Part shown: piece after piece, positions 6,423 through 18,892 of the stretch
Layout of the letters: each line of letters opens with the position of its first letter
How positions within the stretch are numbered: the first letter of the stretch is position 1
From: a virus
Strand: one strand, 5' to 3'
Virus genome (UHGV): UHGV-0121731
Length of the DNA stretch: 18,942 bases
Notes under the pieces: generated by a model
Seen by the model: only the letters and a program-made list of their open reading frames with translations
Told to the model about the DNA's origin: nothing
The model's database searches: none
Position numbers and translations under genes: made by a program

Positions 6423-6614
6423 ATGGAGTGGATTACACATATAATCACTTTCTTTGTCGGACTGGGAGCGGGTTGGTCGATTCGTGTCGTGTTTTCATCT
6501 AGAAAGCAAATTGGTGATTCCAGCGTGAACTCAAACAATCATACAGTTACTCAAACTGGTAACAGTGTTACAAATGGAAGTATTGTTGGCGGTAATCAGG
6601 ATAGGTCACATTAA
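6423..6614 (+). CDS. Small membrane protein (63 aa): one predicted TM helix plus an S/N/T/G-rich tail
   Basis: Good ribosome-binding site and ATG. Hydrophobic segment WITHIITFFVGLGAGWSIRVVF followed by a polar tail ending in the repeat GNSVTNGSIVGGNQ. First gene of the low-GC operon. Confidence 0.5.
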   Translation: MEWITHIITFFVGLGAGWSIRVVFSSRKQIGDSSVNSNNHTVTQTGNSVTNGSIVGGNQDRSH

Positions 6615-6625
6615 GAGGTGTTGGT

Positions 6626-7189
6626 GTGTCTATCGAACAGTCAGGAAATACCGTAACAAATGGCAACATAATTTCTGGTGATCAGACTAATCATATATTC
6701 AATTATCCTGTTAAAGGAACTAACAGGGAGATACAGAAACTTTATGAGTGTTTGAAGAGAGGTGATATAGGGGAAGCGGTTCCGGGGTTTTGTGCTGAAC
6801 TAGAGCATTATATGTCCCTTCAGCCTGATATTGATGTTCGGGGGTTAGACGCTAAATTACTCGAGAGTAATAGAAAAGATTTGTTGTTTTTAGCTAAGCA
6901 GATGAAGGAAAAAGCGACAAAAGCTATAATGCGTCGCCAGACGTCAAAAACTGCACAAAGAATATTTGTAATAATTTTAGATCAAATTCATTTTGATTTT
7001 ATAACGAAAGTAACACCACTTATAGAAGCGGATAGCTCCAGAGTGATTGTTGATGAGAAAATCGCTTCAATAATTGATGAATTATATTCGTCTTTGGGAG
7101 AAAACTTGCTAGAGCTAACAGCAAAAGATCTCTTGGGATTACTATTTTTTCTGGGTGGCAATTGCCATATAAGGTGGGATAAATGCTAA
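6626..7189 (+). CDS. Hypothetical protein (187 aa): N-terminal GNTVTNGNIISGDQ repeat and a helical C-terminal domain
   Basis: GTG start preceded by AGAGGTG. Its N-terminus repeats the C-terminal peptide motif of the upstream small ORF. Stop overlaps the next start (ATG at 7183). Confidence 0.55.
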   Translation: MSIEQSGNTVTNGNIISGDQTNHIFNYPVKGTNREIQKLYECLKRGDIGEAVPGFCAELEHYMSLQPDIDVRGLDAKLLESNRKDLLFLAKQMKEKATKAIMRRQTSKTAQRIFVIILDQIHFDFITKVTPLIEADSSRVIVDEKIASIIDELYSSLGENLLELTAKDLLGLLFFLGGNCHIRWDKC

Positions 7190-7683
7190 TTTACCATCCA
7201 GCATATGATGCATATCATTGTTTATTCAGAATGATTGCTCTTATAGACCATGTAAATGAAATTGAGGTAGATAAGGCCAGGATTTTGGACTTCTATCTGC
7301 TATTTCCTGCTTTGGTATCTGAAATTAGAATGCCTCATAATTATTCTTCAATGAAGAAAGAAGCGAAGAAGTATTCTAATATATATCGGGATCCTATTAA
7401 TGTTACATCTACATTCAGAGATATGTATGAAATTCAAATGGCAGCAATAAGATGTCTTGCAGCTACTGGGTTGGTTGAGATGGATTGTCTTGAGAAAAAC
7501 ATTATAAAGAGAACAGATAAGTCTGTTCCAGATGGCTTATTACTTTCTATTAATAATTTTATTAATACGAATAAAACTATTAATACATTTATCATAGACA
7601 CACTATCTAAATTCCATTTGGTTGGAAAAGATGGTTTAAAAGATAGAACGAAGTTAATGGAGTTTAGATATGACTATTCTTAA
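7183..7683 (+). CDS. Hypothetical small helical protein (166 aa); possible middle-component-like partner of the ATPase
   Basis: Overlaps both neighbours (translational coupling). No catalytic motif is recognisable by eye. Confidence 0.55.
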   Translation: MLIYHPAYDAYHCLFRMIALIDHVNEIEVDKARILDFYLLFPALVSEIRMPHNYSSMKKEAKKYSNIYRDPINVTSTFRDMYEIQMAAIRCLAATGLVEMDCLEKNIIKRTDKSVPDGLLLSINNFINTNKTINTFIIDTLSKFHLVGKDGLKDRTKLMEFRYDYS

Positions 7684-9607
7684 TCCATCTTTTTTTGTTA
7701 GTAAATTAAAAGTTTTCCAAGCTGGGCATGAAGCCTTTAGCTGTGTTTTCCATAAAGGGGTAAATGTAATAAGGGGGCGAAATAGCTCTGGCAAAACTAC
7801 TGTTATGGATCTTTTAGCATTTTCACTTGGTGCTGAAAATATTAGCTTGAAACCAACAGCTCTTTTATGTTCATTTACCATGGTTGAAGTGCTTTTGAAT
7901 AATAATCTTGCCTGTTTTAAGCGGGAGATAAGTTCAGAATCCATGCGACCGTTGAGTATTTTTTGGGGCTCGATGGATAAAGCTCTTAACTCATCACCGA
8001 GTCAGTGGCAAACTTATCCTTTTAAGCGTTCAGAAAAATCACTGAGTTTTTCTCAGGTAATTTTAAATGCTTTAGATATGCCTCTAGCTCAAGGAGAGGG
8101 TGCTTCAATTTTAACAATGCATCAAATCCTACGTGTATTATATGCAGATCAGCCATCTCTTCATAGTCCTATATTTAGGAACGATAATTTTGATAGAGCT
8201 CTAACACGAGAGACTATTGGTGATTATTTATGTGGTATATTTGATGACAAACTTTATAGCTCTTTGATTAGGCTTAAACAGGTTGATTCTGAACTTTCGA
8301 CAAAAATTGTTGAGCTGAAAAGCATATTTAAAGTTCTTGGACGCTCTGGGCAATCGCAGCATGTAAGTTTTATTGACGATAAAATAAAAGAGCTAAGAGA
8401 GAAGAAAGAAAAGATCAATGGCGAGCTTATCTCTCTCAAAGAGAGTAATAACTCTTCTGTTAATGATAAAAATGCTGATAAAACTAAAACTAACAACCTT
8501 CGAAAAAAATTAAATAAAGCGAAGGAAGAAGAAGTAAAAAATATTGATAGTATCCATATGTTAGAAATGGAGATAGCTGACTCTGAAATGTTCATTAATG
8601 AGTTAGAATCCAGATTGCGCTCTCTTAATGAATCAAGTATTGCCAGAGACTATTTTAGCAACGTTAAATTTCAATTTTGTCCCAGTTGTTTAAGTGAGTT
8701 GAATATTTCCTCTGAAAATGAGTGCTCATTATGTAAAAATCACGCGCCAGAGGGTAGTGATGCTCCTCAATTATTAAGGATGAAAAATGAGATTTCTATC
8801 CAATTAAAAGAATCCAGAGATCTTCTTGAGCATAATTATGTAAAACTGAGAGAGCTTAAGAGCCAATCTCCTGCTTTAAAGCAAAAAGTGCGAGATTTAA
8901 TTCGTGAATATGAAGAAGTCTCTAAGGTTTGGGAAAATGCCTATGAAATAGAGTTTGAAACTCTTACTAAGGCTCTGGGACGTGTTGAAGAAGAAATTAA
9001 ACAGGCTTGTGAATTACAAAAACTTAGTGATGTAATATCTGATTTGCAAAAAGAACGTGATAGTCTGCAGTTAGAGAAGGAGAGATTGTCCTCTTTAATT
9101 GAATCTTTGGAGAGTAAAGAGGAATATAGGAAGAAGGATATTTCTAAAACTATAGAAAAAATTATGAAAAGACTTCTTAAAAAAGATCTTCCATTGCAGA
9201 CTGAATTTATTGATCCCAGAAAAGTTAATTTTAGCTTTGCCGATAATACTGTTTATGTAAATGGGGCTAAGTATTTTTCAGAAAGTTCAGCAGTTGTATT
9301 AAGACATCTCTTTCATTTAGCATTGTTAACTGCAAGCATTGAAAAAAAATACATGAGATTACCTCGTTTCCTAATGCTTGATGGAATTGACGATGGTGGA
9401 ATGGAGAAAGAGCGCAGTCACAATCTGCAGAAAATAATAGTACAAGAAACTCAATCGTATCAATATGATTTTCAAATAATTTATGCGACATCGGAGATTA
9501 ATCCAGAATATGAAAATACCGATTTGATTGTTGGTCGGTATTTTAATCCAGATGATAAATCATTAAAGATAAATTATACCGCTCTTGATAAAGATTTATT
9601 GAACTAA
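7670..9607 (+). CDS. SMC/Rad50-like ABC ATPase (645 aa) with split head, long K/E-rich coiled coil and central CxxC-x14-CxxC hook
   Basis: Walker A GRNSSGKTT at residues 36-44 (nt 7775-7801). Central Cys pairs CPSC...CSLC at nt 8678-8734. K/E-rich heptad-like region across roughly residues 200-520. C-terminal Walker B-like FLMLDGIDDGG (about nt 9371-9400) followed by ERSH. No Toprim or other nuclease domain is appended. Confidence 0.75.
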   Translation: MTILNPSFFVSKLKVFQAGHEAFSCVFHKGVNVIRGRNSSGKTTVMDLLAFSLGAENISLKPTALLCSFTMVEVLLNNNLACFKREISSESMRPLSIFWGSMDKALNSSPSQWQTYPFKRSEKSLSFSQVILNALDMPLAQGEGASILTMHQILRVLYADQPSLHSPIFRNDNFDRALTRETIGDYLCGIFDDKLYSSLIRLKQVDSELSTKIVELKSIFKVLGRSGQSQHVSFIDDKIKELREKKEKINGELISLKESNNSSVNDKNADKTKTNNLRKKLNKAKEEEVKNIDSIHMLEMEIADSEMFINELESRLRSLNESSIARDYFSNVKFQFCPSCLSELNISSENECSLCKNHAPEGSDAPQLLRMKNEISIQLKESRDLLEHNYVKLRELKSQSPALKQKVRDLIREYEEVSKVWENAYEIEFETLTKALGRVEEEIKQACELQKLSDVISDLQKERDSLQLEKERLSSLIESLESKEEYRKKDISKTIEKIMKRLLKKDLPLQTEFIDPRKVNFSFADNTVYVNGAKYFSESSAVVLRHLFHLALLTASIEKKYMRLPRFLMLDGIDDGGMEKERSHNLQKIIVQETQSYQYDFQIIYATSEINPEYENTDLIVGRYFNPDDKSLKINYTALDKDLLN

Positions 9608-9640: not shown

Positions 9641-9740
9641 GCATTTATATCAGCTTGTTTTTGAATCGGGGCAAGTCCAGAGGTGGTAAGCTGTTTGGAG
9701 AAAACTGCAACTGCATTAAAACCGCCCCACGAAGCGGGCG

Positions 9741-9759
9741 GGCGAGGCGGGGAAAGCAC
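9741..9759. other. P2-type cos site (19-nt cohesive-end sequence GGCGAGGCGGGGAAAGCAC)
   Basis: Exact match to the P2 cohesive-end sequence as I remember it, located between the hotspot and portal gene Q as in P2 prophage maps. The sequence is recalled, not looked up. Confidence 0.6.
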
Positions 9760-9901
9760 TGCGCGCTGGCGGTGGTGCTGATTTTATTTTTTCAGCGTCT
9801 GAGCGCGTCGTGATGGCGTTTAGATTGTTAGCCGGGGCGTTGGTGTGTCTGCGGGCTGTTTTGTGCGGTGGTGAGCGTGTGAGGGCGTGATGGCGGGTTG
9901 T

Positions 9902-9923
9902 AAAAAAGCCGCCCGCAGGCGGC
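9902..9923 (-). terminator. Intrinsic terminator of the leftward P-Q transcript
   Basis: GCCGCC-cgca-GGCGGC hairpin (9908-9923) lying 5 nt downstream of the Q stop on the minus strand and followed on that strand by a run of six T (AAAAAA on + at 9902-9907). Confidence 0.6.
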
Positions 9924-9928
9924 GATGT

Positions 9929-10963
9929 TCAGCCGTTGTCAGTGTCCAGTGAGTAGTTTTTAAAGCGGATGACCTCCTGACCGAGCCAGCCGTTTATCTC
10001 GCGGATCCTGTCCTGTAACGGGATAAGCTCATTGCGGACAAAGACCTTTGCCACTTTCTCAATATCACCCAGCGACCCGACGTTCTCCGGCTTGCCCCCC
10101 ATCAACTGAAAGGGGATGCGGTGCGCGTCCAGCAGGTCAGCGGCGCTGGCTTTTTTGATATTAAAAAAATCGTCCTTCGTTGCCACTTCACTGAGCGGGA
10201 TAATTTTAATGCCGTCGGCTTTCCCCTGTGGGGCATAGAGAAACAGATTTTTAAAGTTATTGCGGCCTTTCGACTTAACCATGTTTTCGCGAAGCATTTC
10301 GATATCGTTGCGATCCTGCACGGCATCAGTGACGTACATGATGTATCCGGCATGTGCGCCGTTTTCGTAATACTTGCGGCGGAACAGCGTGGCCGACTCA
10401 TTCAGCCAGGCAGAGTTAAGGGCGCTGAGATATTCCGGCAGGCCGTACAGCTCCTGATTAATATCCGGCTCCAGCAGGTGAAACACGGAGCCGGGCGTGA
10501 AAGGTGTCGGCTCGTTGAAGGACGGCACCCACCAGTAAACATCCTCCTCCACCCCACGGCGGGTATATTTTGCCGGTGAGGTTTCCAGTCTGATGACCTT
10601 ACCGGTAGTGCTGTAACGCTTTTCCAGAAACGCATTACCGAACACCAGAAAATCCAGCACAAAGCGGCTGAAATCCTGCTGAGAAAGCCACGGATGCGGG
10701 ATAAATGTCGAGGCCAGAATATTGCGTTTGACGTAAATTGGTGAGCTGTGATGCACGGCAGCACGCAGGCTTTTTGCCAGACCGGTAAAGCTGACCGGTG
10801 GCTCATACCATCTGCCGTTACTGATGCACTCGACGTAATCCAGAATGTCACGGCGGTCGAGTACCGGCACCGGCTCACCAAAGGTGAATGCTTCCATTTT
10901 CGGGGCGCTGGCGGTCATTTTTTTTGCCGCAGGTTGCGGTGTTTTCCCTTTTTTCTTGCTCAT
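9929..10963 (-). CDS. Q: Portal protein, P2 gpQ family (344 aa)
   Basis: Length identical to P2 Q. Product starts MSKKKGKTPQPAAKK with a GGAG ribosome-binding site. Its start overlaps the stop of the upstream terminase remnant (TGATG), as in the P2 P-Q operon. Confidence 0.85.
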   Translation of the reverse strand: MSKKKGKTPQPAAKKMTASAPKMEAFTFGEPVPVLDRRDILDYVECISNGRWYEPPVSFTGLAKSLRAAVHHSSPIYVKRNILASTFIPHPWLSQQDFSRFVLDFLVFGNAFLEKRYSTTGKVIRLETSPAKYTRRGVEEDVYWWVPSFNEPTPFTPGSVFHLLEPDINQELYGLPEYLSALNSAWLNESATLFRRKYYENGAHAGYIMYVTDAVQDRNDIEMLRENMVKSKGRNNFKNLFLYAPQGKADGIKIIPLSEVATKDDFFNIKKASAADLLDAHRIPFQLMGGKPENVGSLGDIEKVAKVFVRNELIPLQDRIREINGWLGQEVIRFKNYSLDTDNG

Positions 10964-11235
10964 CAGTAAAACTCCAGAATGGTGGATGTCAGCGAGGTGC
11001 TGATACCGGCGGTGAGTGGCTCATTTAACAGGGCGTGCATGGTCGCCCAGGCGAGGTCGGCGTGGCTGGCTTCCTCGCTGCGGCTGGCCTCATAGGTGGC
11101 GCTGCGTCCGCTGCTGGTCATGGTCTTGCGGATAGCCATAAACGAGCTGGTGATGTCGGTGGCGCTGACGTCATATTCCAGACAGCCACGACGGATAACG
11201 TCTTTTGCCTTGAGCACCATTGCGGTTTTCATTTC
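10963..11235 (-). pseudogene. P: Terminase large subunit (P2 gpP family), C-terminal remnant only (about 90 codons of an expected ~590)
   Basis: The minus-strand frame ending ...SLTSTILEFY is coupled to the Q start as in P2, but the reading frame runs into the S remnant and V/W on the opposite strand within about 300 bp, so the 5' ~1.5 kb of P is absent. Confidence 0.7.
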
Positions 11236-11664
11236 CGGTGTGTGACCGGACTGATTGAATCGCTGTCACCGTCAGGGCGTCGGCGACTGAGCGCCGAACT
11301 GGCGAAACGTCTGCGTCAGAGTCAGCAGCGTCGGGTGATGGCACAGAAAGCCCCGGACGGCACACCCTACGCGCCACGCCAGCAGCAGAGCGCCAGAAAA
11401 AAGACTGGTCGTGTTAAGCGAAAAATGTTTGCGAAACTTATCACCAGTCGTTTTTTGCATATCCGCGCCAGCCCGGAACAGGCATCAATGGAATTTTACG
11501 GCGGGAAGTCGCCGAAAATCGCCAGTGTGCATCAGTTCGGTCTGTCGGAAGAAACCCGGAAAGACGGTAAGAAAATTGATTATCCGGCGCGTCCTCTGCT
11601 CGGCTTTACCGGTGAGGATGTGCAGATGATTGAAGAGATTATCCTGGCTCACCTCGACCGTTAG
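11236..11664 (+). pseudogene. S: Tail completion protein (P2 gpS family) lacking its start and first residues
   Basis: Frame reading ...LSPSGRRRLSAELAKRLRQSQQRRVMAQKAPDGTPYAPRQ... to a stop at 11664 resembles gpS-type proteins. No start codon or ribosome-binding site is present, and it abuts the terminase remnant on the other strand. Confidence 0.65.
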
Positions 11665-11696
11665 TTGTGCCATCCCCGACACCTCATCGTCACATT

Positions 11697-11718
11697 GCCG
11701 CCGGTATGACCCGGCGGC
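11697..11718 (+). terminator. GC-rich hairpin between the S remnant and V (GCCGCCGG-tatgac-CCGGCGGC); possible operon boundary element
   Basis: Perfect 8-bp GC stem with no clear U-tract, so terminator function is doubtful. Confidence 0.2.
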
Positions 11719-11730
11719 ATCCTTCCCGTT

Positions 11731-12366
11731 ATGAACACTCTCGCAAATATTCAGGAACTCGCGCGCGCACTGCGCAACATGATCCGCACCGGCGTTATCG
11801 TCGAAACCGACCTTAACGCCGGTCGCTGCCGTGTGCAGACCGGCGGCATGTGCACTGACTGGCTTCAGTGGCTGACCCATCGCGCCGGACGTTCGCGCAC
11901 ATGGTGGGCACCTTCCGTGGGGGAACAGGTGCTGATTCTGGCCGTGAGCGGTGAACTCGACACGGCGTTCGTTCTGCCGGGGATTTATTCCGGCGATAAC
12001 CCCGCGCCGTCTGCGTCGTCTGATGCCCTGCATATCCGTTTCCCTGACGGGGCGGTGATTGAATATGAACCCGAAACCAGTGCACTTACGGTAAGCGGAA
12101 TTAAAACGGCCAGCGTGACGGCTTCTGATTCTGTTACCGCCACGGTGCCGGTGGTCACGGTGAAAGCGTCAACCCGTGTCACCCTGGACACACCGGAAGT
12201 GGTCTGCACTAACAAACTGACTACCGGCACGCTGGAAGTGCAGAAGGGCGGGACGATGCGCGGCAACATTGAACACACCGGCGGTGAACTCTCATCAAAC
12301 GGTAAGGTACTGCATACCCATAAACACCCCGGCGACAGTGGCGGCACAACAGGGGGACCTCTATGA
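11731..12366 (+). CDS. V: Baseplate central spike protein, P2 gpV family (211 aa)
   Basis: Length identical to P2 V. N-terminus MNTLANIQELARALRNMIRTG and C-terminus HTHKHPGDSGGTTG match my recollection of gpV. Confidence 0.9.
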   Translation: MNTLANIQELARALRNMIRTGVIVETDLNAGRCRVQTGGMCTDWLQWLTHRAGRSRTWWAPSVGEQVLILAVSGELDTAFVLPGIYSGDNPAPSASSDALHIRFPDGAVIEYEPETSALTVSGIKTASVTASDSVTATVPVVTVKASTRVTLDTPEVVCTNKLTTGTLEVQKGGTMRGNIEHTGGELSSNGKVLHTHKHPGDSGGTTGGPL

Positions 12367-12710
12367 CTGCGCGTTATCTCGGAATGAATCGCAGTGATGG
12401 CCTGACGGTCACTGACCTTGAGCATATCAGCCAGAGTATCGGCGATATCCTGCGCACACCGGTCGGCTCACGGGTGATGCGTCGTGATTACGGCTCGTTG
12501 CTGGCGTCAATGATTGACCAGCCGCAGATCCCGGCGCTTGAGTTGCAGATTAAGGTCGCCTGTTACATGGCGGTGCTGAAATGGGAACCCCGCGTCACCC
12601 TGTCATCCGTCACCACGGCGCGCAGTTTTGACGGGCGAATAACGGTCACGTTAACCGGTCAGCACAACGACACCGGCCAGCCACTTTCGTTAACCATCCC
12701 TGTGAGTTGA
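12363..12710 (+). CDS. W: Baseplate wedge protein, P2 gpW family (115 aa)
   Basis: Same length as P2 W, with an ATGA-coupled start to V. Confidence 0.85.
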   Translation: MTARYLGMNRSDGLTVTDLEHISQSIGDILRTPVGSRVMRRDYGSLLASMIDQPQIPALELQIKVACYMAVLKWEPRVTLSSVTTARSFDGRITVTLTGQHNDTGQPLSLTIPVS

Positions 12711-12714
12711 AACC

Positions 12715-13623
12715 ATGCCGATTATCGACCTGAACCAGCTACCCGCACCGGATGTGGTCGAGGAGCTGGACTTTGAAACCATTCTTGCCGAACGCAAGGC
12801 GACACTGATTTCCCTTTACCCGGAAGACCAGCAGGAGGCGGTCGCCCGTACCCTGATGCTGGAATCTGAGCCTCTCGTCAAACTGCTGGAGGAAAATGCT
12901 TATCGTGAGCTTATCTGGCGTCAGCGTGTGAATGAGGCCGCACGGGCGGTAATGCTGGCCTGTGCCGCCGGTAATGACCTTGATGTGATTGGTGCCAATT
13001 ACAACACCACGCGCCTGATTATCACCCCGGCAGATGATTCGACTATCCCGCCGACACCGGCAGTGATGGAATCTGACACCGATTATCGTCTGCGTATTCA
13101 GCAGGCGTTTGAAGGTTTAAGCGTCGCCGGGTCAGTGGGAGCCTATCAGTATCATGGTCGCAGTGCCGACGGGCGTGTCGCGGATATCTCTGTCACCAGT
13201 CCGTCTCCGGCCTGTGTCACTATCTCTGTGCTGTCTCGCGAAAATAACGGTATCGCATCCGAAGACCTGCTGGCGGTGGTGCGCAACGCCCTTAATGGTG
13301 AGGACGTCAGGCCGGTGGCCGACCGCGTGACCGTGCAGTCTGCCGCCATCGTTGAATACCAGATAAACGCCACGCTTTACCTTTACCCTGGTCCTGAAAG
13401 CGAACCCATCCGCGCTGCTGCCGTGAAAAAACTGGAAGCGTACATCACGGCACAGCACCGGCTGGGGCGCGACATCCGTCTGTCTGCCATTTATGCCGCT
13501 TTGCATGTGGAAGGCGTGCAGCGTGTCGAGCTGGCCGCACCACTGGCCGACATTGTGCTCAACAGTACGCAGGCGTCTTTCTGCACCGAATACAGCGTCG
13601 TGACCGGAGGCTCGGATGAGTGA
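12715..13623 (+). CDS. J: Baseplate wedge protein, P2 gpJ family (302 aa)
   Basis: Same length as P2 J and correct position in the conserved V-W-J-I order. Confidence 0.85.
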   Translation: MPIIDLNQLPAPDVVEELDFETILAERKATLISLYPEDQQEAVARTLMLESEPLVKLLEENAYRELIWRQRVNEAARAVMLACAAGNDLDVIGANYNTTRLIITPADDSTIPPTPAVMESDTDYRLRIQQAFEGLSVAGSVGAYQYHGRSADGRVADISVTSPSPACVTISVLSRENNGIASEDLLAVVRNALNGEDVRPVADRVTVQSAAIVEYQINATLYLYPGPESEPIRAAAVKKLEAYITAQHRLGRDIRLSAIYAALHVEGVQRVELAAPLADIVLNSTQASFCTEYSVVTGGSDE

Positions 13624-14227
13624 TTCGCGCCTGCTGCCGACCGGCTCATCACCGCTTGAAGTCGCCGCCGCAAGAGCCTGTGCGGAAATTGAAAAAACGC
13701 CGGTCAGTATTCGTGAGCTGTGGAACCCGGATACCTGTCCGGCAAATCTGCTGCCGTGGCTGGCGTGGTCATTTTCGGTTGACCGCTGGGATGATAAGTG
13801 GCCGGAAGCGACAAAACGCGCTGTTATCCGCGATGCGTATTTCATTCACTGCCATAAGGGCACTATTGGTGCGATTCGCCGTGTGGTGGAGCCGCTCGGC
13901 TATCTGATTGAGGTGAGGGAGTGGTGGCAGCTCAACGAGGAGCCGGGGACGTTCCGCATCGTTGTTGGCGTGCTTGAGCAGGGTATTACCGAGGAAATGT
14001 ATCAGGAGCTGGAGCGTCTCGTTGCTGATGCAAAACCTGCAAGCCGCCATCTGACGGGACTGGCTATCAGTTTAAGTACAACCGGCAACATTTTTGTCGG
14101 TGCGGGATGCTATCACGGCGACGCCCTGACGGTTTATCCCTACACCCCGGAGGCCATTATTGTCGGAGGGGATTATTTCCCGGCCTCGGCCATTCATTTA
14201 ATTGATAACCTGAGAGTAAACGCATGA
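13616..14227 (+). CDS. I: Baseplate/tail protein, P2 gpI family (203 aa)
   Basis: Position in the conserved V-W-J-I-H order and overlapping start/stop with both neighbours. Confidence 0.75.
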   Translation: MSDSRLLPTGSSPLEVAAARACAEIEKTPVSIRELWNPDTCPANLLPWLAWSFSVDRWDDKWPEATKRAVIRDAYFIHCHKGTIGAIRRVVEPLGYLIEVREWWQLNEEPGTFRIVVGVLEQGITEEMYQELERLVADAKPASRHLTGLAISLSTTGNIFVGAGCYHGDALTVYPYTPEAIIVGGDYFPASAIHLIDNLRVNA

Positions 14228-15408
14228 CAGTGAAATACTACGCCATTCTGACTAATCAGGGCGCAGCACGGCTGGCTAACGCGACGATGCTCGGCAGTAA
14301 GCTGAATCTGACGCAAATGGCCGTTGGTGATGCGAATGGTGTCTTGCCGACACCAGACCCGGCACAGATAAAACTGATTAACCAGAAACGCATCGCGCCG
14401 CTGAATCTTCTGAGTGTTGACCCGAACAACCAGAGTCAGATTATTGCGGAGCAAATCATCCCTGAGAACGAGGGCGGATTCTGGATCCGTGAGATTGGGC
14501 TTTATGATGATGAAGGCGTACTCATTGCGGTGGCGAACTGCCCGGAAACGTACAAACCGCAGTTGCAGGAAGGCAGTGGTCGTACCCAGACTATCCGCAT
14601 GATTCTGGTTGTCACGAATACCGAAGCTATCACGCTGAAAATCGACCCGTCGGTGGTACTGGCGACCCGTAAATATGTGGATGATGAAGTCCTGGAATTA
14701 AGGCTGTATGTGGATGACCAGATGAGCAAACACATTGCCGCACAGGACCCTCATACCCAGTATGCACAGAAACATAATCCGACATTTACCGGAGAACCAA
14801 AAGCACCGACGCCTGCCGCAGGAAATAACACCACGCGGATTGCGACCACTGCGTTTGTACAGGCCGCTATTACCGCTCTGATTAACGGTGCGCCTGACAC
14901 GCTGGACACACTGAAAGAAATTGCCGCGGCCATTAACAATGACCCGAAATTCAGCACCACCATTAACAATGCGCTGGCAGGTAAACAACCGCTGGACAAT
15001 ACGCTGACTCATTTGAGTGGAAAGGATGTTGCCGGTCTTCTCGCATACCTTGGTTTGGGAGAAGCGGCGAAAAGGGATGTGGGCACAGGAGATAATCAGA
15101 TACCGGATATGGGAGCATTCGCTTCTGGTTCGGGATGGTTCAGGCTACCAGGTGGATATATTGTTCAGTTTGGCACTTTTGCAGGAAACACGACCCGCTT
15201 TATCAGTGGACACTTCCCTATACCATTCCCTAATCAGCCGATGGTTTCAGTCAGTGTTATGTCTGATGCCGTTCAGTCAGACCCGTCGATTCCTGCCCCG
15301 CAGGTTTTGTCTGTAAATTTTGAACATATCAGTAATTCAGCGTGGCGTGTGGCAACCAGTGATATCTCACAGCAATACAGATTCAGTTATATTTCGATAG
15401 GACGGTAG
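14224..15408 (+). CDS. H: Tail fibre protein (394 aa): constant N-terminal part (to about nt 15050) fused to the currently expressed variable C-terminal segment
   Basis: The N-terminus MTVKYYAILTNQGAARLANATMLGSKLNLTQMAVGDANG is the conserved tail-fibre N-domain of P2 H-type proteins. The invertase crossover site lies inside the ORF at 15038-15063. Confidence 0.85.
   Translation: MTVKYYAILTNQGAARLANATMLGSKLNLTQMAVGDANGVLPTPDPAQIKLINQKRIAPLNLLSVDPNNQSQIIAEQIIPENEGGFWIREIGLYDDEGVLIAVANCPETYKPQLQEGSGRTQTIRMILVVTNTEAITLKIDPSVVLATRKYVDDEVLELRLYVDDQMSKHIAAQDPHTQYAQKHNPTFTGEPKAPTPAAGNNTTRIATTAFVQAAITALINGAPDTLDTLKEIAAAINNDPKFSTTINNALAGKQPLDNTLTHLSGKDVAGLLAYLGLGEAAKRDVGTGDNQIPDMGAFASGSGWFRLPGGYIVQFGTFAGNTTRFISGHFPIPFPNQPMVSVSVMSDAVQSDPSIPAPQVLSVNFEHISNSAWRVATSDISQQYRFSYISIGR
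15038..15063. other. Left crossover site of the invertible segment (26 bp, TTCTCGCATACCTTGGTTTGGGAGAA)
   Basis: Imperfect dyad with the Hin/Gin-family site shape. Its right 14 bp (TTGGTTTGGGAGAA) are identical to the reverse complement of the site at 16914-16939. It encodes the LGLGE join in the fibre protein. Confidence 0.65.
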
Positions 15409-15410
15409 AA

Positions 15411-15851
15411 ATGCAGAAATATATTTTCAGTGCCGATAAAAATGCGTTTTTCCCTGTGGAGCTTAAAATCGCTTATCAGGAATCCGGCGAATGGCCCGAT
15501 GATGGAATCGAAATTGACGACACTGTTGCTGCCGAATTTATGAAGGAAGCACCAGAAGGAAAATACAGAGGTGTCATCGACGGAATGCCTGCATGGATTG
15601 ATATTCCACCGCCAACTCATGAGGAACAAATTGCCGCAGCCGAACTGAAAAAGCAGCAATTGATTAATCAGGTCAACGAATACATAAACAGTAAGCAATG
15701 GCCTGGTAAAGCGGCGATTGGTCGCCTGAAAGGTGAGGAACTGGTGCAATATAATTTGTGGCTGGATTATCTGGACGCACTGGAACTGGTCGATACTTCC
15801 GGTGCGCCAGATATTGAATGGCCTACGCCTCCGGCAGTTCAGGCCAGATGA
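15411..15851 (+). CDS. Tail fibre assembly chaperone for the current orientation (146 aa)
   Basis: Immediately follows the fibre gene. C-terminus LWLDYLDALELVDTSGAPDIEWP is the conserved tail-fibre-assembly C-terminal motif. Confidence 0.8.
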   Translation: MQKYIFSADKNAFFPVELKIAYQESGEWPDDGIEIDDTVAAEFMKEAPEGKYRGVIDGMPAWIDIPPPTHEEQIAAAELKKQQLINQVNEYINSKQWPGKAAIGRLKGEELVQYNLWLDYLDALELVDTSGAPDIEWPTPPAVQAR

Positions 15852-16425
15852 CATCAGGCGCGGTGCTGGTATCTGTTGCCTCCACCGCGTCAATGTAATC
15901 CAGCACAGCGTTAAGTCGGGTGGTTTCTGCCTGCGTCAGCTTCCGCCCGGCCCGTAATTTCATCTGAATCAGACTGATGGAAGCCATTGCAGCATCAATC
16001 AGCGACTGGCGCTTTGCTTCTGCCGCGTCTAGTGCGGCGCTATGCTGTGCCTCGGTATCCGTCACCCATTTCTCACCATCCCATTTATCGAATGGCGTTA
16101 ACGGGGCGATAGTGGTTGTATTTTCAGGGTAATCACCCGGAGCTGTGATTTCTTTCGATTCTCCTGTTTCGGTGCTATAGATGATTTCACCGCGATGGTC
16201 TGGTACATATTCCCATGAGTTAAAATCTGCAGAACGGCAGATTGCATAACCAGCTTTATGTGTAACTGGTGCATCTAAACAAGAACATGCCGGGATACCG
16301 ACGCCAACGGCAAGATATTCTGTTGATGATGAAATGTATTCCCGTGTCGTGTTGTCATAGTTATAGACGGTAATATCACCCGCTACTGTGGCAATAAATT
16401 CACTGTTTAATTTTGCCTGTGTCAT
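15823..16425 (-). CDS. Alternative tail fibre assembly chaperone (200 aa), convergent partner inside the invertible segment
   Basis: C-terminus LNAVLDYIDAVEATDTSTAPDVIWPELP shares the same chaperone motif. Its start overlaps the stop of the alternative fibre segment (TAATG). Confidence 0.8.
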   Translation of the reverse strand: MTQAKLNSEFIATVAGDITVYNYDNTTREYISSSTEYLAVGVGIPACSCLDAPVTHKAGYAICRSADFNSWEYVPDHRGEIIYSTETGESKEITAPGDYPENTTTIAPLTPFDKWDGEKWVTDTEAQHSAALDAAEAKRQSLIDAAMASISLIQMKLRAGRKLTQAETTRLNAVLDYIDAVEATDTSTAPDVIWPELPEA

Positions 16426-16926
16426 TATGCAGCCCTCACGATGTAGTTAAATGCAATGTTGCGCGGGCGGGTTTCAGTGCCAATATTCGCTGCATTGTCA
16501 GAAGCAACCCCACGAGTGCTGACAGCTCTTACTGCTGAAGGTAGGCTTTGAGGCTCCCGGTCAGTATAGGCAATCCCCCCATCCCCTCCAGTTGCTAGCG
16601 GAGCATAACTCCCGGCCTGACCAATAGTTGACGATGTTGTATTTGAACCTGTCCAGATCTGCTGGTTATGTGAGTGGTCTCTGAGTGAATGGCCTTGAGA
16701 TGAAAGCAGCGCACGCCCGTTGTCGATACCACGACTATCATCCCATCCACGAATAAACTCACCGCGTAAATCAGGTAATTTATTTGTTGGATAAGCCTTT
16801 GCCAGTTCCGGGTATTCTTCAGCAGAAAATGCCGCACCGTTGCATTTCAGCCAGCCTGTTGGCGGTGTGGCTGAAGGCCATGGAACAGGCACCCCAACAG
16901 GTAATGCTGAGCCTTCTCCCAAACCA
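16425..16926 (-). CDS. Alternative, currently silent tail-fibre C-terminal segment (tail-collar type); expressed only after inversion fuses it to the constant part of H
   Basis: The minus-strand frame crosses the right crossover site and continues ...GLGEGSALPVGVPVPWPSATPPTGWLKCNGAAFSAEEYPELAKAYP..LPDLRGEFIRGWDD, a classic tail-collar fibre motif. It has no promoter or start of its own; the ORF-track Met at 16967 lies outside the segment. Confidence 0.75.
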
Positions 16927-16939
16927 ACGTTTATGAAAA
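16914..16939. other. Right crossover site of the invertible segment (TTCTCCCAAACCAACGTTTATGAAAA)
   Basis: Reverse complement TTTTCATAAACGTTGGTTTGGGAGAA shares its right half exactly with the left site. It lies about 50 bp upstream of the invertase gene. Confidence 0.65.
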
Positions 16940-16988
16940 TGCAGAGATAACGGGCAAGTGGCATCATCTCCGGTTTTTATTCAGGGGG

Positions 16989-17588
16989 ATGCTCATGTTT
17001 ATTGGCTATGTACGCGTATCAACAAATGACCAGAACACGGAATTGCAGCGTAACGCGCTGGAATGCGCGGGATGTGAGCGGATTTTTGAGGACAAAATCA
17101 GCGGCACGAAGTCCGACAGGCCGGGACTGAAAAAACTGCTCAGGACATTATCGGAGGGGGATACACTGGTAGTCTGGAAGCTGGACCGGCTGGGGCGTAG
17201 TATGCGGCATCTGGTCATTCTGGTTGAGGAACTGCGCGAACGTGGCATTAATTTTCGCAGCCTGACGGATGCTATTGATACCAGCACGCCGATGGGGCGT
17301 TTTTTCTTTCATGTGATGGGTGCCCTGGCTGAAATGGAACGAGAACTCATTGTCGAGCGGACTCGGGCCGGGCTGGAAGCGGCCAGAGCCAAAGGTCGTA
17401 TTGGTGGCAGACGTCCTAAACTCACCACGAGTGAGTGGGAGCAGGCCGGGCGTTTGCTGGCTGCAGGGGAGTCACGTCAACGCGTGGCACTGATTTTTGA
17501 TATTGGTCTGTCCACGCTCTATAAAAAATTTCCCTCATCAGCGACAAAGAATAAATTGTGTCATCCCTTAGCCAACCGGGACAAATAG
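16989..17588 (+). CDS. Serine DNA invertase, Gin/Hin/Pin/Cin family (199 aa; alternative ATG at 16995)
   Basis: MLMFIGYVRVSTNDQNTELQRNALECAGCERIFEDKISGTKSDRPGLKKLL...GRIGGRRPKLT is near-identical in pattern to Gin/Pin, with catalytic Ser in the VRVSTNDQ motif and a C-terminal helix-turn-helix. Confidence 0.9.
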   Translation: MLMFIGYVRVSTNDQNTELQRNALECAGCERIFEDKISGTKSDRPGLKKLLRTLSEGDTLVVWKLDRLGRSMRHLVILVEELRERGINFRSLTDAIDTSTPMGRFFFHVMGALAEMERELIVERTRAGLEAARAKGRIGGRRPKLTTSEWEQAGRLLAAGESRQRVALIFDIGLSTLYKKFPSSATKNKLCHPLANRDK

Positions 17589-17647
17589 CCTGACATCTCC
17601 GGCACAACTGAAAATATCACTCACCCATTAACCACGGAGTTAAACGG

Positions 17648-18028
17648 ATGAGTGACTATCATCACGGCGTGCAGGTGCTGGAGATTAACGACGGCACCCG
17701 CGTCATTTCCACCGTATCCACTGCCATTGTCGGCATGGTCTGCACGGCCAGCGATGCGGATGCGGAAACCTTCCCCCTCAATAAACCGGTGCTGATTACC
17801 AATGTGCAGAGTGCAATTGCAAAGGCTGGTAAAAAAGGCACGCTGGCGGCGTCGTTGCAGGCCATCGCTGACCAGTCAAAACCGGTCACCGTTGTCGTGC
17901 GTGTGGAAGACGGCACCGGCGAAGACGAGGAAACGAAACTTGCGCAGACCGTTTCCAATATCATCGGCACCACCGACGAAAACGGCCAGTACACCGGACT
18001 GAAAGCCCTGCTGGCGGCGGAGTCGGTA
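17648..18028 (+). pseudogene. FI: Tail sheath protein (P2 gpFI family), N-terminal ~127 codons only
   Basis: [31 protein letters not shown]... matches the gpFI N-terminus as I remember it, but the frame stops after 146 codons; a full sheath is about 396 aa. Resemblance is lost after ...LLAAESV at about 18028. Confidence 0.7.
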
Positions 18029-18029
18029 A

Positions 18030-18179
18030 GACACCGAGTCGAAAATCTCCGTGGTCTGCACCTATTTCCGGTTGACGATGGACGGTAAGGAGCTGGTCGA
18101 AATCGACACCATCAACATGATTGAGAAGGTGAACGGCGTCGACCGGCTGGAGCAACACCGCCGCAATATCGGCCTGTGA
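18030..18179 (+). pseudogene. FII: Tail tube protein (P2 gpFII family), C-terminal ~49 codons only
   Basis: A different frame reads [49 protein letters not shown] to a stop at 18177-18179, about 56 bp upstream of E, which is where the tube gene ends in P2. There is no start codon. Identity rests on position and on recollection of the tube C-terminus. Confidence 0.5.
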
Positions 18180-18235
18180 TTTTCATACGGTCAGCCAGGC
18201 TGACCGGTTAACCCTGATTCAGAAGTGAGAAAACC

Positions 18236-18511
18236 ATGAACAAAGAAAATGTCATTACCCTGGAAAATCCGGTCAAACGTGGTGAGCAGGTTATCGAACA
18301 GGTCACGCTGATGAAACCCAGTGCCGGGACGCTGCGCGGTGTCAGTCTGGCTGCGGTTGCAAACTCCGAAGTCGATGCACTGATTAAGGTACTGCCGCGC
18401 ATGACGGCACCGATGCTGACCGAGCAGGAGGTCGCCGCGCTGGAACTGCCTGACCTTGTGGCGCTGGCCGGTAAGGTGGTCGGTTTTTTGTCGCCGAACT
18501 CGGTGCAGTGA
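18236..18511 (+). CDS. E: Tail assembly chaperone, P2 gpE family (91 aa)
   Basis: Same size as P2 E, with the slippery heptamer near its 3' end and the tape-measure start overlapping downstream. Confidence 0.85.
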   Translation: MNKENVITLENPVKRGEQVIEQVTLMKPSAGTLRGVSLAAVANSEVDALIKVLPRMTAPMLTEQEVAALELPDLVALAGKVVGFLSPNSVQ

Positions 18512-18663
18512 CGTTTCCGAAAAATCTGTCGGTCGATGACCTGATGGCGGATGTGGCAGTGATATTTCACTGGCCGCCATCAGAACTGTATCCCATGAGC
18601 CTGACCGAACTCATCACATGGCGCGAAAAGGCGCTCCGGCGAAGCGGAAACACGAATGAGTAA
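18236..18663 (+). CDS. E+E' frameshift fusion product (tail chaperone extension)
   Basis: Joining the E frame to the -1 frame at 18484-18490 gives a continuous product ending at TAA 18661-18663, which overlaps the tape-measure ATG at 18656 as in P2. Confidence 0.6.
18484..18490 (+). promoter_or_regulatory. Programmed -1 ribosomal frameshift site T_TTT_TTG producing E+E'
   Basis: A canonical X_XXY_YYZ heptamer in the E frame. The -1 frame is open from here to 18663 and reads VAELGAVTFPKNLSVDDLMADVAVIFHWPPSELYPMSLTELITWREKALRRSGNTNE. Confidence 0.7.
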
Positions 18664-18892
18664 CAATGTAAAATTACAGGTATTGCTCAGGGCTGTTGAC
18701 CAGGCATCCCGCCCATTTAAATCCATCCGTACAGCGAGTAAGTCGCTGTCGGGGGATAAGCGCGTCATAGACGAGCAGGACTGGACAATCACTAAGGTGA
18801 CACATTTTCTGAATAATAGCGGCTTCACGACGTCCCTGGAGCTTGAGGTCAGGCTTTCTGATGTGGAGTACGAAACAGAAGATGATGAGTGA
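18656..18892 (+). pseudogene. In-frame fusion remnant: tape-measure (gpT) N-terminal ~34 codons joined to the gpD C-terminal ~44 codons
   Basis: MSNNVKLQVLLRAVDQASRPFKSIRTASKSLSGD has the gpT start character, but the ORF is only 78 aa; a tape measure is over 800 aa. The tail ...WTITKVTHFLNNSGFTTSLELEVRLSDVEYETEDDE is followed by AT-rich non-coding DNA as expected after the last tail gene D. The D assignment is from memory and position. Confidence 0.55.

Follow-up and report, generated by a model that had tools for sequence, protein, structure and literature searches.

In this study, we asked how a P2-like prophage comes to carry the end of its large-terminase gene P directly against a tail gene S that lacks its start, and whether such a junction is a single accident of prophage decay or one product of a process that recurs. 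The window, by which we mean the whole 18,942-nt stretch of viral DNA analysed (UHGV-0121731), is made up of blocks with 94–98 % identity to P2 in P2 order (int-C-cox-B-A ... cos-Q-P / S-V-W-J-I ... ogr), as in the P2-like (Peduovirus) group, and the Pfam families found on identical genes agree with its assignment as a P2-like prophage. An earlier note on this DNA had described about 90 C-terminal codons of P abutting a start-less S-like frame at roughly 11233–11250, and had proposed an alignment to a complete P2-like genome to locate the break points and any microhomology. By BLAST against P2 (NC_001895), window positions 9741–11243 correspond to P2 1–1501 and positions 11243–11666 to P2 8946–9369; against Wphi, the match runs over Wphi 1–1502 and then from 8947 onward, and from window position 11731 onward V, W, J and I follow in P2 order in the comparison with both phages. 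The left block spans cos, the portal gene Q and the final 92–93 codons of P, and the right block is S from codon 11/12. The deletion junction lies at position 11243, inside the range first given, with P2 1501 joined to P2 8946 and a microhomology of 1 nt. The sequence around it reads TTTCCGGTGTG[T]GACCGGACTG, where the bracketed T is position 11243 and can be attributed to either side (P2 1501 or 8946). The join is flush, GTGT↓GACCGG (the arrow marks the break here and below), and the parental break points are GGTGTGT↓AGCGG in P and CCGGCT↓GACCGG in S. With an overlap of 1 nt at this position and of 2 nt at each of two other joins in the window, the deletion is a homology-independent break-and-join event.

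Both gene remnants agree well with what had been claimed for them. The P remnant (10963–11243, minus strand) is colinear with P2 1221–1501 and translates into the final 92–93 residues of the 590-aa terminase with the native stop kept, while the nuclease/ATPase body of the enzyme is gone; Pfam Terminase_6C matches the equivalent ORF in the related record L010. The S remnant (11242–11664, plus strand) covers residues 12 to 150 of S, with the native stop at 11664, and the join itself has made an in-frame GTG at 11242–11244, which stands directly before S codon 12. Judging from the P2 annotation, no promoter would have been kept upstream of it. The same 140-aa S product is annotated by PGAP (NCBI) as an intact protein in strain Z1323PEC0011, and annotation pipelines label it an intact 'virion morphogenesis protein' (e.g. 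in NZ_CP148277.1), so that the truncation is hidden.

The size of the loss was taken from two intact prophages, L021 and L025, which were retrieved by a look-up of the W protein of the window. These have no mismatch to window positions 9808–11243 (1436 nt) and three differences in the 6787 nt of positions 11243–18029 (99.96 % identity), and in both of them the two flanks lie exactly 7,445 bp apart, the lost DNA being P2 1502–8946. Loss in one event, as previously proposed, is upheld, but the estimate of about 9 kb has to be lowered to 7,445 bp. As the flanks have not diverged from those of an intact relative, the deletion must be recent. According to the P2 annotation, it removed P codons 1–498 (84 % of the gene), O, N, M, L, X, Y, K, lysA, lysB, lysC, R and the first 11 codons of S, together with the divergent late promoters P_P/P_O and their activator site. 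Colinearity with P2 and comparison with the two intact prophages bear out that the scaffold/capsid, small terminase, head completion and lysis (holin and endolysin) functions are missing while cos and the portal gene are kept; to this list, correct as far as it went, the tail genes R and X and both late promoters have to be added. Altogether, we put at about 0.8 the probability that the window is a P2-like (Peduovirus) E. coli prophage that has recently undergone a homology-independent deletion of 7,445 bp with both ends at preferred break sites.

Much of the prophage outside this deletion is preserved. Window positions 9712–9759 equal P2 33546–33593, the right end of P2, and the 19-nt cohesive end (9741–9759, GGCGAGGCGGGGAAAGCAC) is an exact match to P2 cosL and lies beside the portal gene. 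Q is an intact ORF of 344 aa (9929–10963, minus strand; colinear with P2 Q at 187–1221), and exactly this portal protein is very common in intact prophages; in the window, the deletion would have cut the gene off from the late promoter P_P (start at P2 3016). Integrase, repressor, cox, B, A and ogr are also kept in the lineage of the window. Between the replication gene A and cos lie four intact accessory ORFs (6423–9607, plus strand), which, according to Pfam on the identical genes of L010 and to PADLOC, encode a 63-aa ORF product, a CTD9-domain protein, an MC5-domain protein and a 645-aa LmuB-like SMC ATPase. The ATPase is the sole cargo protein matched by PADLOC (LmuB, E = 7e-47), and the cargo looks like a Lamassu / ABC-three-component defence system.

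Two further deletions have struck the tail genes. At the second junction (18028–18029), sheath gene FI is fused to tube gene FII (P2 18033 joined to 19222, with an AA overlap and a loss of approximately 1.19 kb), and at the third (18757–18758) the start of the tape-measure gene T is fused to the end of D (P2 19952 joined to 23819, with a TA overlap and a loss of approximately 3.87 kb). Compared with L021 and P2, the window therefore lacks 7,445 bp, 1.19 kb and 3.87 kb, and it is a defective prophage. The three deletions would make heads, tails, DNA packaging and cell lysis all impossible for the element; the claim that it can neither lyse the cell nor package DNA is thus upheld from gene loss, and with two additional tail-gene deletions the prophage would be more crippled than that claim had it.

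Several other features of the window were seen along the way. The 731-nt segment between the second and third junctions (18028–18758, FII'-E-T') has 98.6 % identity to L021, compared with 99.96 % for the adjoining 6.8 kb, which suggests that it is a recombination patch between two deletion junctions. The tail-fibre region (14224–17588) is unlike that of P2 and contains a 394-aa fibre gene, two fibre-assembly/collar genes on the opposite strand and a resolvase-family invertase gene (16989–17588); positions 15765–16475 have the opposite orientation in prophage L008, which hints at a host-range segment capable of inversion. In the integrase/repressor region (50–1216), DNA identity to P2 is just 66–70 %. 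In sister contigs the prophage adjoins pflB/focA, and the attachment site of this lineage therefore differs from that of P2 and from the cpxP-fieF site occupied by the dog-strain prophage described next.

The same junction at 11243 is present in five records (L010, L016, L017, L020 and L024), which are independent assemblies and metagenome contigs with 99.99–100 % identity to the window, and it can for this reason not be an assembly artefact. Two metagenome contigs are 100 % identical to the window and one isolate assembly differs by 1 base, all of them with the same three junctions, and within this near-clonal lineage the junction is clearly common by descent. Among 5,426 complete E. coli genomes, the identical junction was found in one aligned piece in only two records, both of them Korean dog isolates (Z1323PEC0011/13; L001 = NZ_CP148277.1). 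The prophage in these strains sits at the cpxP-fieF site, carries different cargo, is about 3 % divergent from the window and has a different second rearrangement, with an inverted T fragment. This is a 585-bp piece of T (P2 21741–22325) lying in inverted orientation between I and U at L001 9487–10071, and as the bases of P2 22324–25 occur at both of its borders, it looks as if three breaks had been rejoined after the piece in the middle had turned over. Around the junction, the window and the dog-strain version differ at –5, +17 and +41 nt from the join and have no private variants in common. At –5 and +17 both alleles are also present in intact phages, so that the tract common to the two carriers is at most about 21 nt long. 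As far as the join, the flanks of the window are those of an intact phage, whereas those of the dog strain are other haplotypes. From these alignments, the junction of P2 1501 and 8946 appears to have arisen at least twice, the dog-strain case being independent. The earlier note had expected that carriage by other strains would date the deletion; other carriers do exist, but given the recurrence in the dog strains, sharing alone dates nothing.

A junction that appears to have formed twice raises the question of whether its two ends are used in other deletions as well. In two BLAST surveys of the 5,426 complete genomes, designed to find prophages with no more than 1–2 kb between the Q side and the V side, 15 independent head-module deletions were found. 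Five of their left ends fall at P2 1501/1502 and three at 1455; four of their right ends fall at 8946–8948, two at 10669 and two at 7485–7492. If end points were uniform, the probability of such clustering would be no more than 5e-6 for each cluster. Two of the prophages, L004 (NZ_CM129848.1) and L005 (NZ_CP106929.1), have the same outer break sites in P and S as the window with an island of phage DNA in between, namely P2 2090–2434 (345 bp) in L004 and 8378–8551 (174 bp) in L005; each island is bounded by CCGG-containing sequence. The S site has been joined to at least ten different partners, which include O, L, lysB and a point just past the late promoter. These were retrieved by a search for exact copies of the 140-residue S remnant, which can find that S start only and so measures the diversity of partners and not their frequency. 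Free of this bias is L023, found through protein W and belonging to the phage lineage of the window, in which P2 7942 is joined to the same S site. The same sites act as left and as right ends (V', D); position 10669, for instance, is the left end in two prophages and the right end in two others, and the left end at 18031–33 is used both by the second junction of the window and by a different deletion in TB06052 (L004). A look-up of the window's portal protein revealed no further junctions in the contexts sampled, 10 of 10 being intact, and intact forms are the large majority. That the two break sites of the window are used repeatedly is established, as are the junction itself, its size, its recency and the gene losses. 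In the literature searched, we found no account of independent prophages whose deletions end at identical or nearly identical positions marked by a sequence motif.

The break sites also resemble each other in sequence. Of 31 distinct junctions, 22 can be placed at a T↓R step in both parents, where 8.4 would be expected from a simulation matched for overlap length; this count includes several junctions placed by hand, is inflated by the reuse of hot sites and depends on picking T↓R among ambiguous positions, for which the null model corrects. Seven of the 31 do not fit T↓R, and some of these, such as the junction in the prophage of E. coli B, use microhomologies of 6–8 nt; that prophage and three others were joined in this way at other places. 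When 29 unique sites, each counted once, were compared with all T↓R steps in P2, position +1 was A in 21 of the 29 and position +4 was C or G in all 29, and CGG was present at +3 to +6 in 15 of 29 sites, compared with a background of 6.8 % (P about 9e-11). The left side of the sites is rich in G and C, and a loose consensus can be written as SSGNT↓ANCSG. About half of the ends have a CCGG no more than 2 nt away, as opposed to 7 % expected; P2 contains 253 CCGG sites.

These observations can be brought together in the following model. DNA would be broken between T and a purine at the two sites in P and S given above, both of which would be preferred breakage sites in P2 DNA, and the outer ends would then be joined flush with one T in common. 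Cutting and rejoining may be carried out by a RecA-independent break-and-join process, that is, a nuclease or topoisomerase combined with end joining, and the DNA that is broken might be that of the lysogen or that of an incoming phage. The deleted form could persist through the loss of lethal late genes or through the retained defence cargo. We favour breakage at preferred sites followed by end joining over slippage or selection because the same nucleotides are reused and hot sites are joined to one another, and because islands have been kept in L004 and L005 and one fragment has been inverted in L001, which points to rejoining after several breaks. In its general form, the proposal is that P2-like prophages are repeatedly disarmed at a few sites (P2 1455, 1501, 7492, 8378, 8946, 10669 and 18031; SSGNT↓ANCSG), which are rejoined in varied combinations, with fragments sometimes kept or inverted, by a specific break-and-join activity in the lysogen or on incoming DNA; this we regard tentatively, as having a little less than an even chance of being correct.

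Among the other explanations, replication slippage or microhomology-mediated template switching would attribute the hot spots to local sequence, such as the two GACCGG copies at the S site or small hairpins. Several joins at the S site do use 4–7 nt of microhomology (TGACCGG, ACCGGA, TGAC, GCTG), and CCGG is abundant in P2. However, the join in the window recurs despite an overlap of 1 nt, at the P site the overlaps are limited to T or TA, and retained islands and an inverted fragment are not products of slippage. The distances of 0.4–13 kb are also long for replication slippage, and we consider this explanation unlikely.

It is also conceivable that the junction of P2 1501 and 8946 arose only once and then passed from one prophage to another, whether by homologous recombination or by transfer. 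Mosaicism and frequent recombination are typical of P2-like prophages, the segment at 18028–18758 has 98.6 % identity to L021 between neighbours with 99.96–100 %, and descent of the junction is clear inside the window's own lineage. A single origin is nevertheless difficult to reconcile with the differences between the window and L001 at –5 and +17 nt from the join, where both alleles occur in intact phages, since a common tract of at most about 21 nt is too short for RecA exchange. Moreover, the same ends also occur with other partners. We therefore hold a single origin to be quite unlikely, and breakage at the same preferred sites in separate prophages remains the reading that we favour.

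According to a third view, deletions form at random and only those with these end points survive, for instance because toxic products are silenced or because S acquires a new start. In line with this, several joins (those of the window, L001, L004 and L006) put an in-frame GTG or ATG before S codon 12, and deletions that remove lysis genes are plausibly favoured. Against it, a start codon will result by chance for three of the four nucleotides that can precede TG, and the single-nucleotide precision at the P end, which lies inside a dead gene, is left unexplained, as is the use of the same sites as both left and right ends. We regard selection in place of a breakage bias as very unlikely; selection for a new S start codon in particular is not supported, as no promoter remains upstream of S and the joins of L005 and L011 do not supply a canonical start codon.

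A helper-dependent, satellite-like derivative that is packaged by a co-resident intact P2, and with which the junction has spread horizontally, might be suspected because cos, A, B, cox, int and ogr are kept and because some genomes contain two P2-like prophages (as with L021 and L022, which share a genome); yet capsid-size and helper-exploitation genes are lacking, the three deletions look like decay in a nearly clonal lineage and spread would not yield differing flanking haplotypes, which makes this highly improbable. The chance of an assembly artefact, or of a lineage with a naturally short P, is practically negligible, as nothing was found in favour of either, the same join is present in complete long-read genomes and several independent assemblies, and the entire module is present in intact prophages with flanks identical to those of the window, which excludes the one alternative that the earlier note had named as able to refute it.

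If breakage at preferred sites is taken as the working model, several known activities can be considered as its source. A consensus for DNA gyrase is RNNNRNR(T/G)↓GRYC(T/G)YNYN(G/T)NY. Scored against this consensus string and not against a weight matrix, the S site agrees at 11 of 13 positions and is in the top 0.5 %; in a scan of P2, high scores were obtained only for the S site and two of its partner sites, and the 29 sites as a whole do not outscore the full set of T↓R steps (P = 0.73). Self-targeting by a type I-E CRISPR system at the S site was rejected, as no array in the 5,426 genomes has a spacer beside the AAG at P2 8937–8939 in the one register searched; the query was a chimeric repeat-spacer-repeat sequence, and all matches were to the repeat. 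The phage integrase and the A protein were set aside too, the break sites in P and S being without meaningful similarity to the P2 att core or the ori nick, and carriers have different integrases and attachment sites. Most carriers have no invertase gene; the comparison with invertase crossover sites was made by eye only. Restriction at CCGG does not account for the ends, since the cuts lie beside CCGG and not within it, the flanking bases are not uniform and no fixed cut distance fits. An apparent ACACCGG-N16-17 class was dropped as it comprised three ends only, and a CTA variant of the S site, considered for L005 and L011, is absent from 14 of 14 intact references, the joins in these two prophages being merely shifted by 1–3 nt.

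Taken alone, the junction documents one prophage that has been made harmless while keeping a defence system, which is the expected fate of many prophages. If, on the other hand, a few predictable motif sites are used, then shared junctions are no naive guide to dating or relatedness, and the decay of prophages is biased by a mechanism that is open to laboratory testing. A specific enzyme, and not random slippage, may then set the rate at which defective P2-like elements arise, elements that often carry anti-phage systems, and the route of prophage domestication would be readable from junction sequences. The recurrence merits a proper census before much weight is rested on the hot spots.

It remains to compare the element with known systems. 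R-type tailocins, bacteriocins derived from P2 tails, are like the window P2-type and without head genes; here, however, the lysis cassette, R and X are gone, FI and FII are fused and T-U-D is deleted, so that no particle is possible and this assignment was rejected. A P4-like phage satellite was rejected as well, since apart from cos the element has none of the hallmarks, consisting only of P2 core genes and defence cargo with no genes for helper exploitation. The closest relatives are the defective ('grounded' or cryptic) P2-like prophages of E. coli, such as the remnant in E. coli B and the ogrK/D' remnant in K-12, which have the same family membership and gene order and which, like the window, have lost late genes by internal deletion while keeping accessory or defence cargo. 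The prophage of E. coli B REL606 (L035 3963–4130, NC_012967.1) also has a deletion from portal gene to S, with P2 945 joined to 9206 across a 6-nt microhomology, and carries ABC-three-component cargo; its join uses other sites and belongs to a different junction class from the T↓R joins.

At the level of mechanism, the short-homology-independent illegitimate recombination in E. coli studied by the Ikeda school, reportedly attributed to subunit exchange by DNA gyrase, shares with the junctions described here joins with 0–2 nt of homology, recurrent sites, a cut after T and, in concept, independence of RecA. It differs in that the motif found here (SSGNT↓ANCSG, mostly T↓A) is without the 4-bp-stagger symmetry expected of a type II topoisomerase. 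Alternative end joining and restriction-stimulated deletion of linear DNA in E. coli likewise produce flush joins or joins with 1–7 nt of microhomology, internal loss and, now and then, retained or inverted fragments, whereas the cuts in our set are not at CCGG and fit no single recognition sequence at a fixed distance. The feature belongs with the defective P2-like prophages already familiar, and its junction, taken alone, is ordinary prophage decay. In a survey of defective P2-like elements, near-identical defence genes were often found to be retained, with no obvious pattern in the core genes lost (PMC13586616); in the elements described here, by comparison, specific nucleotides recur as the end points of the deletions.
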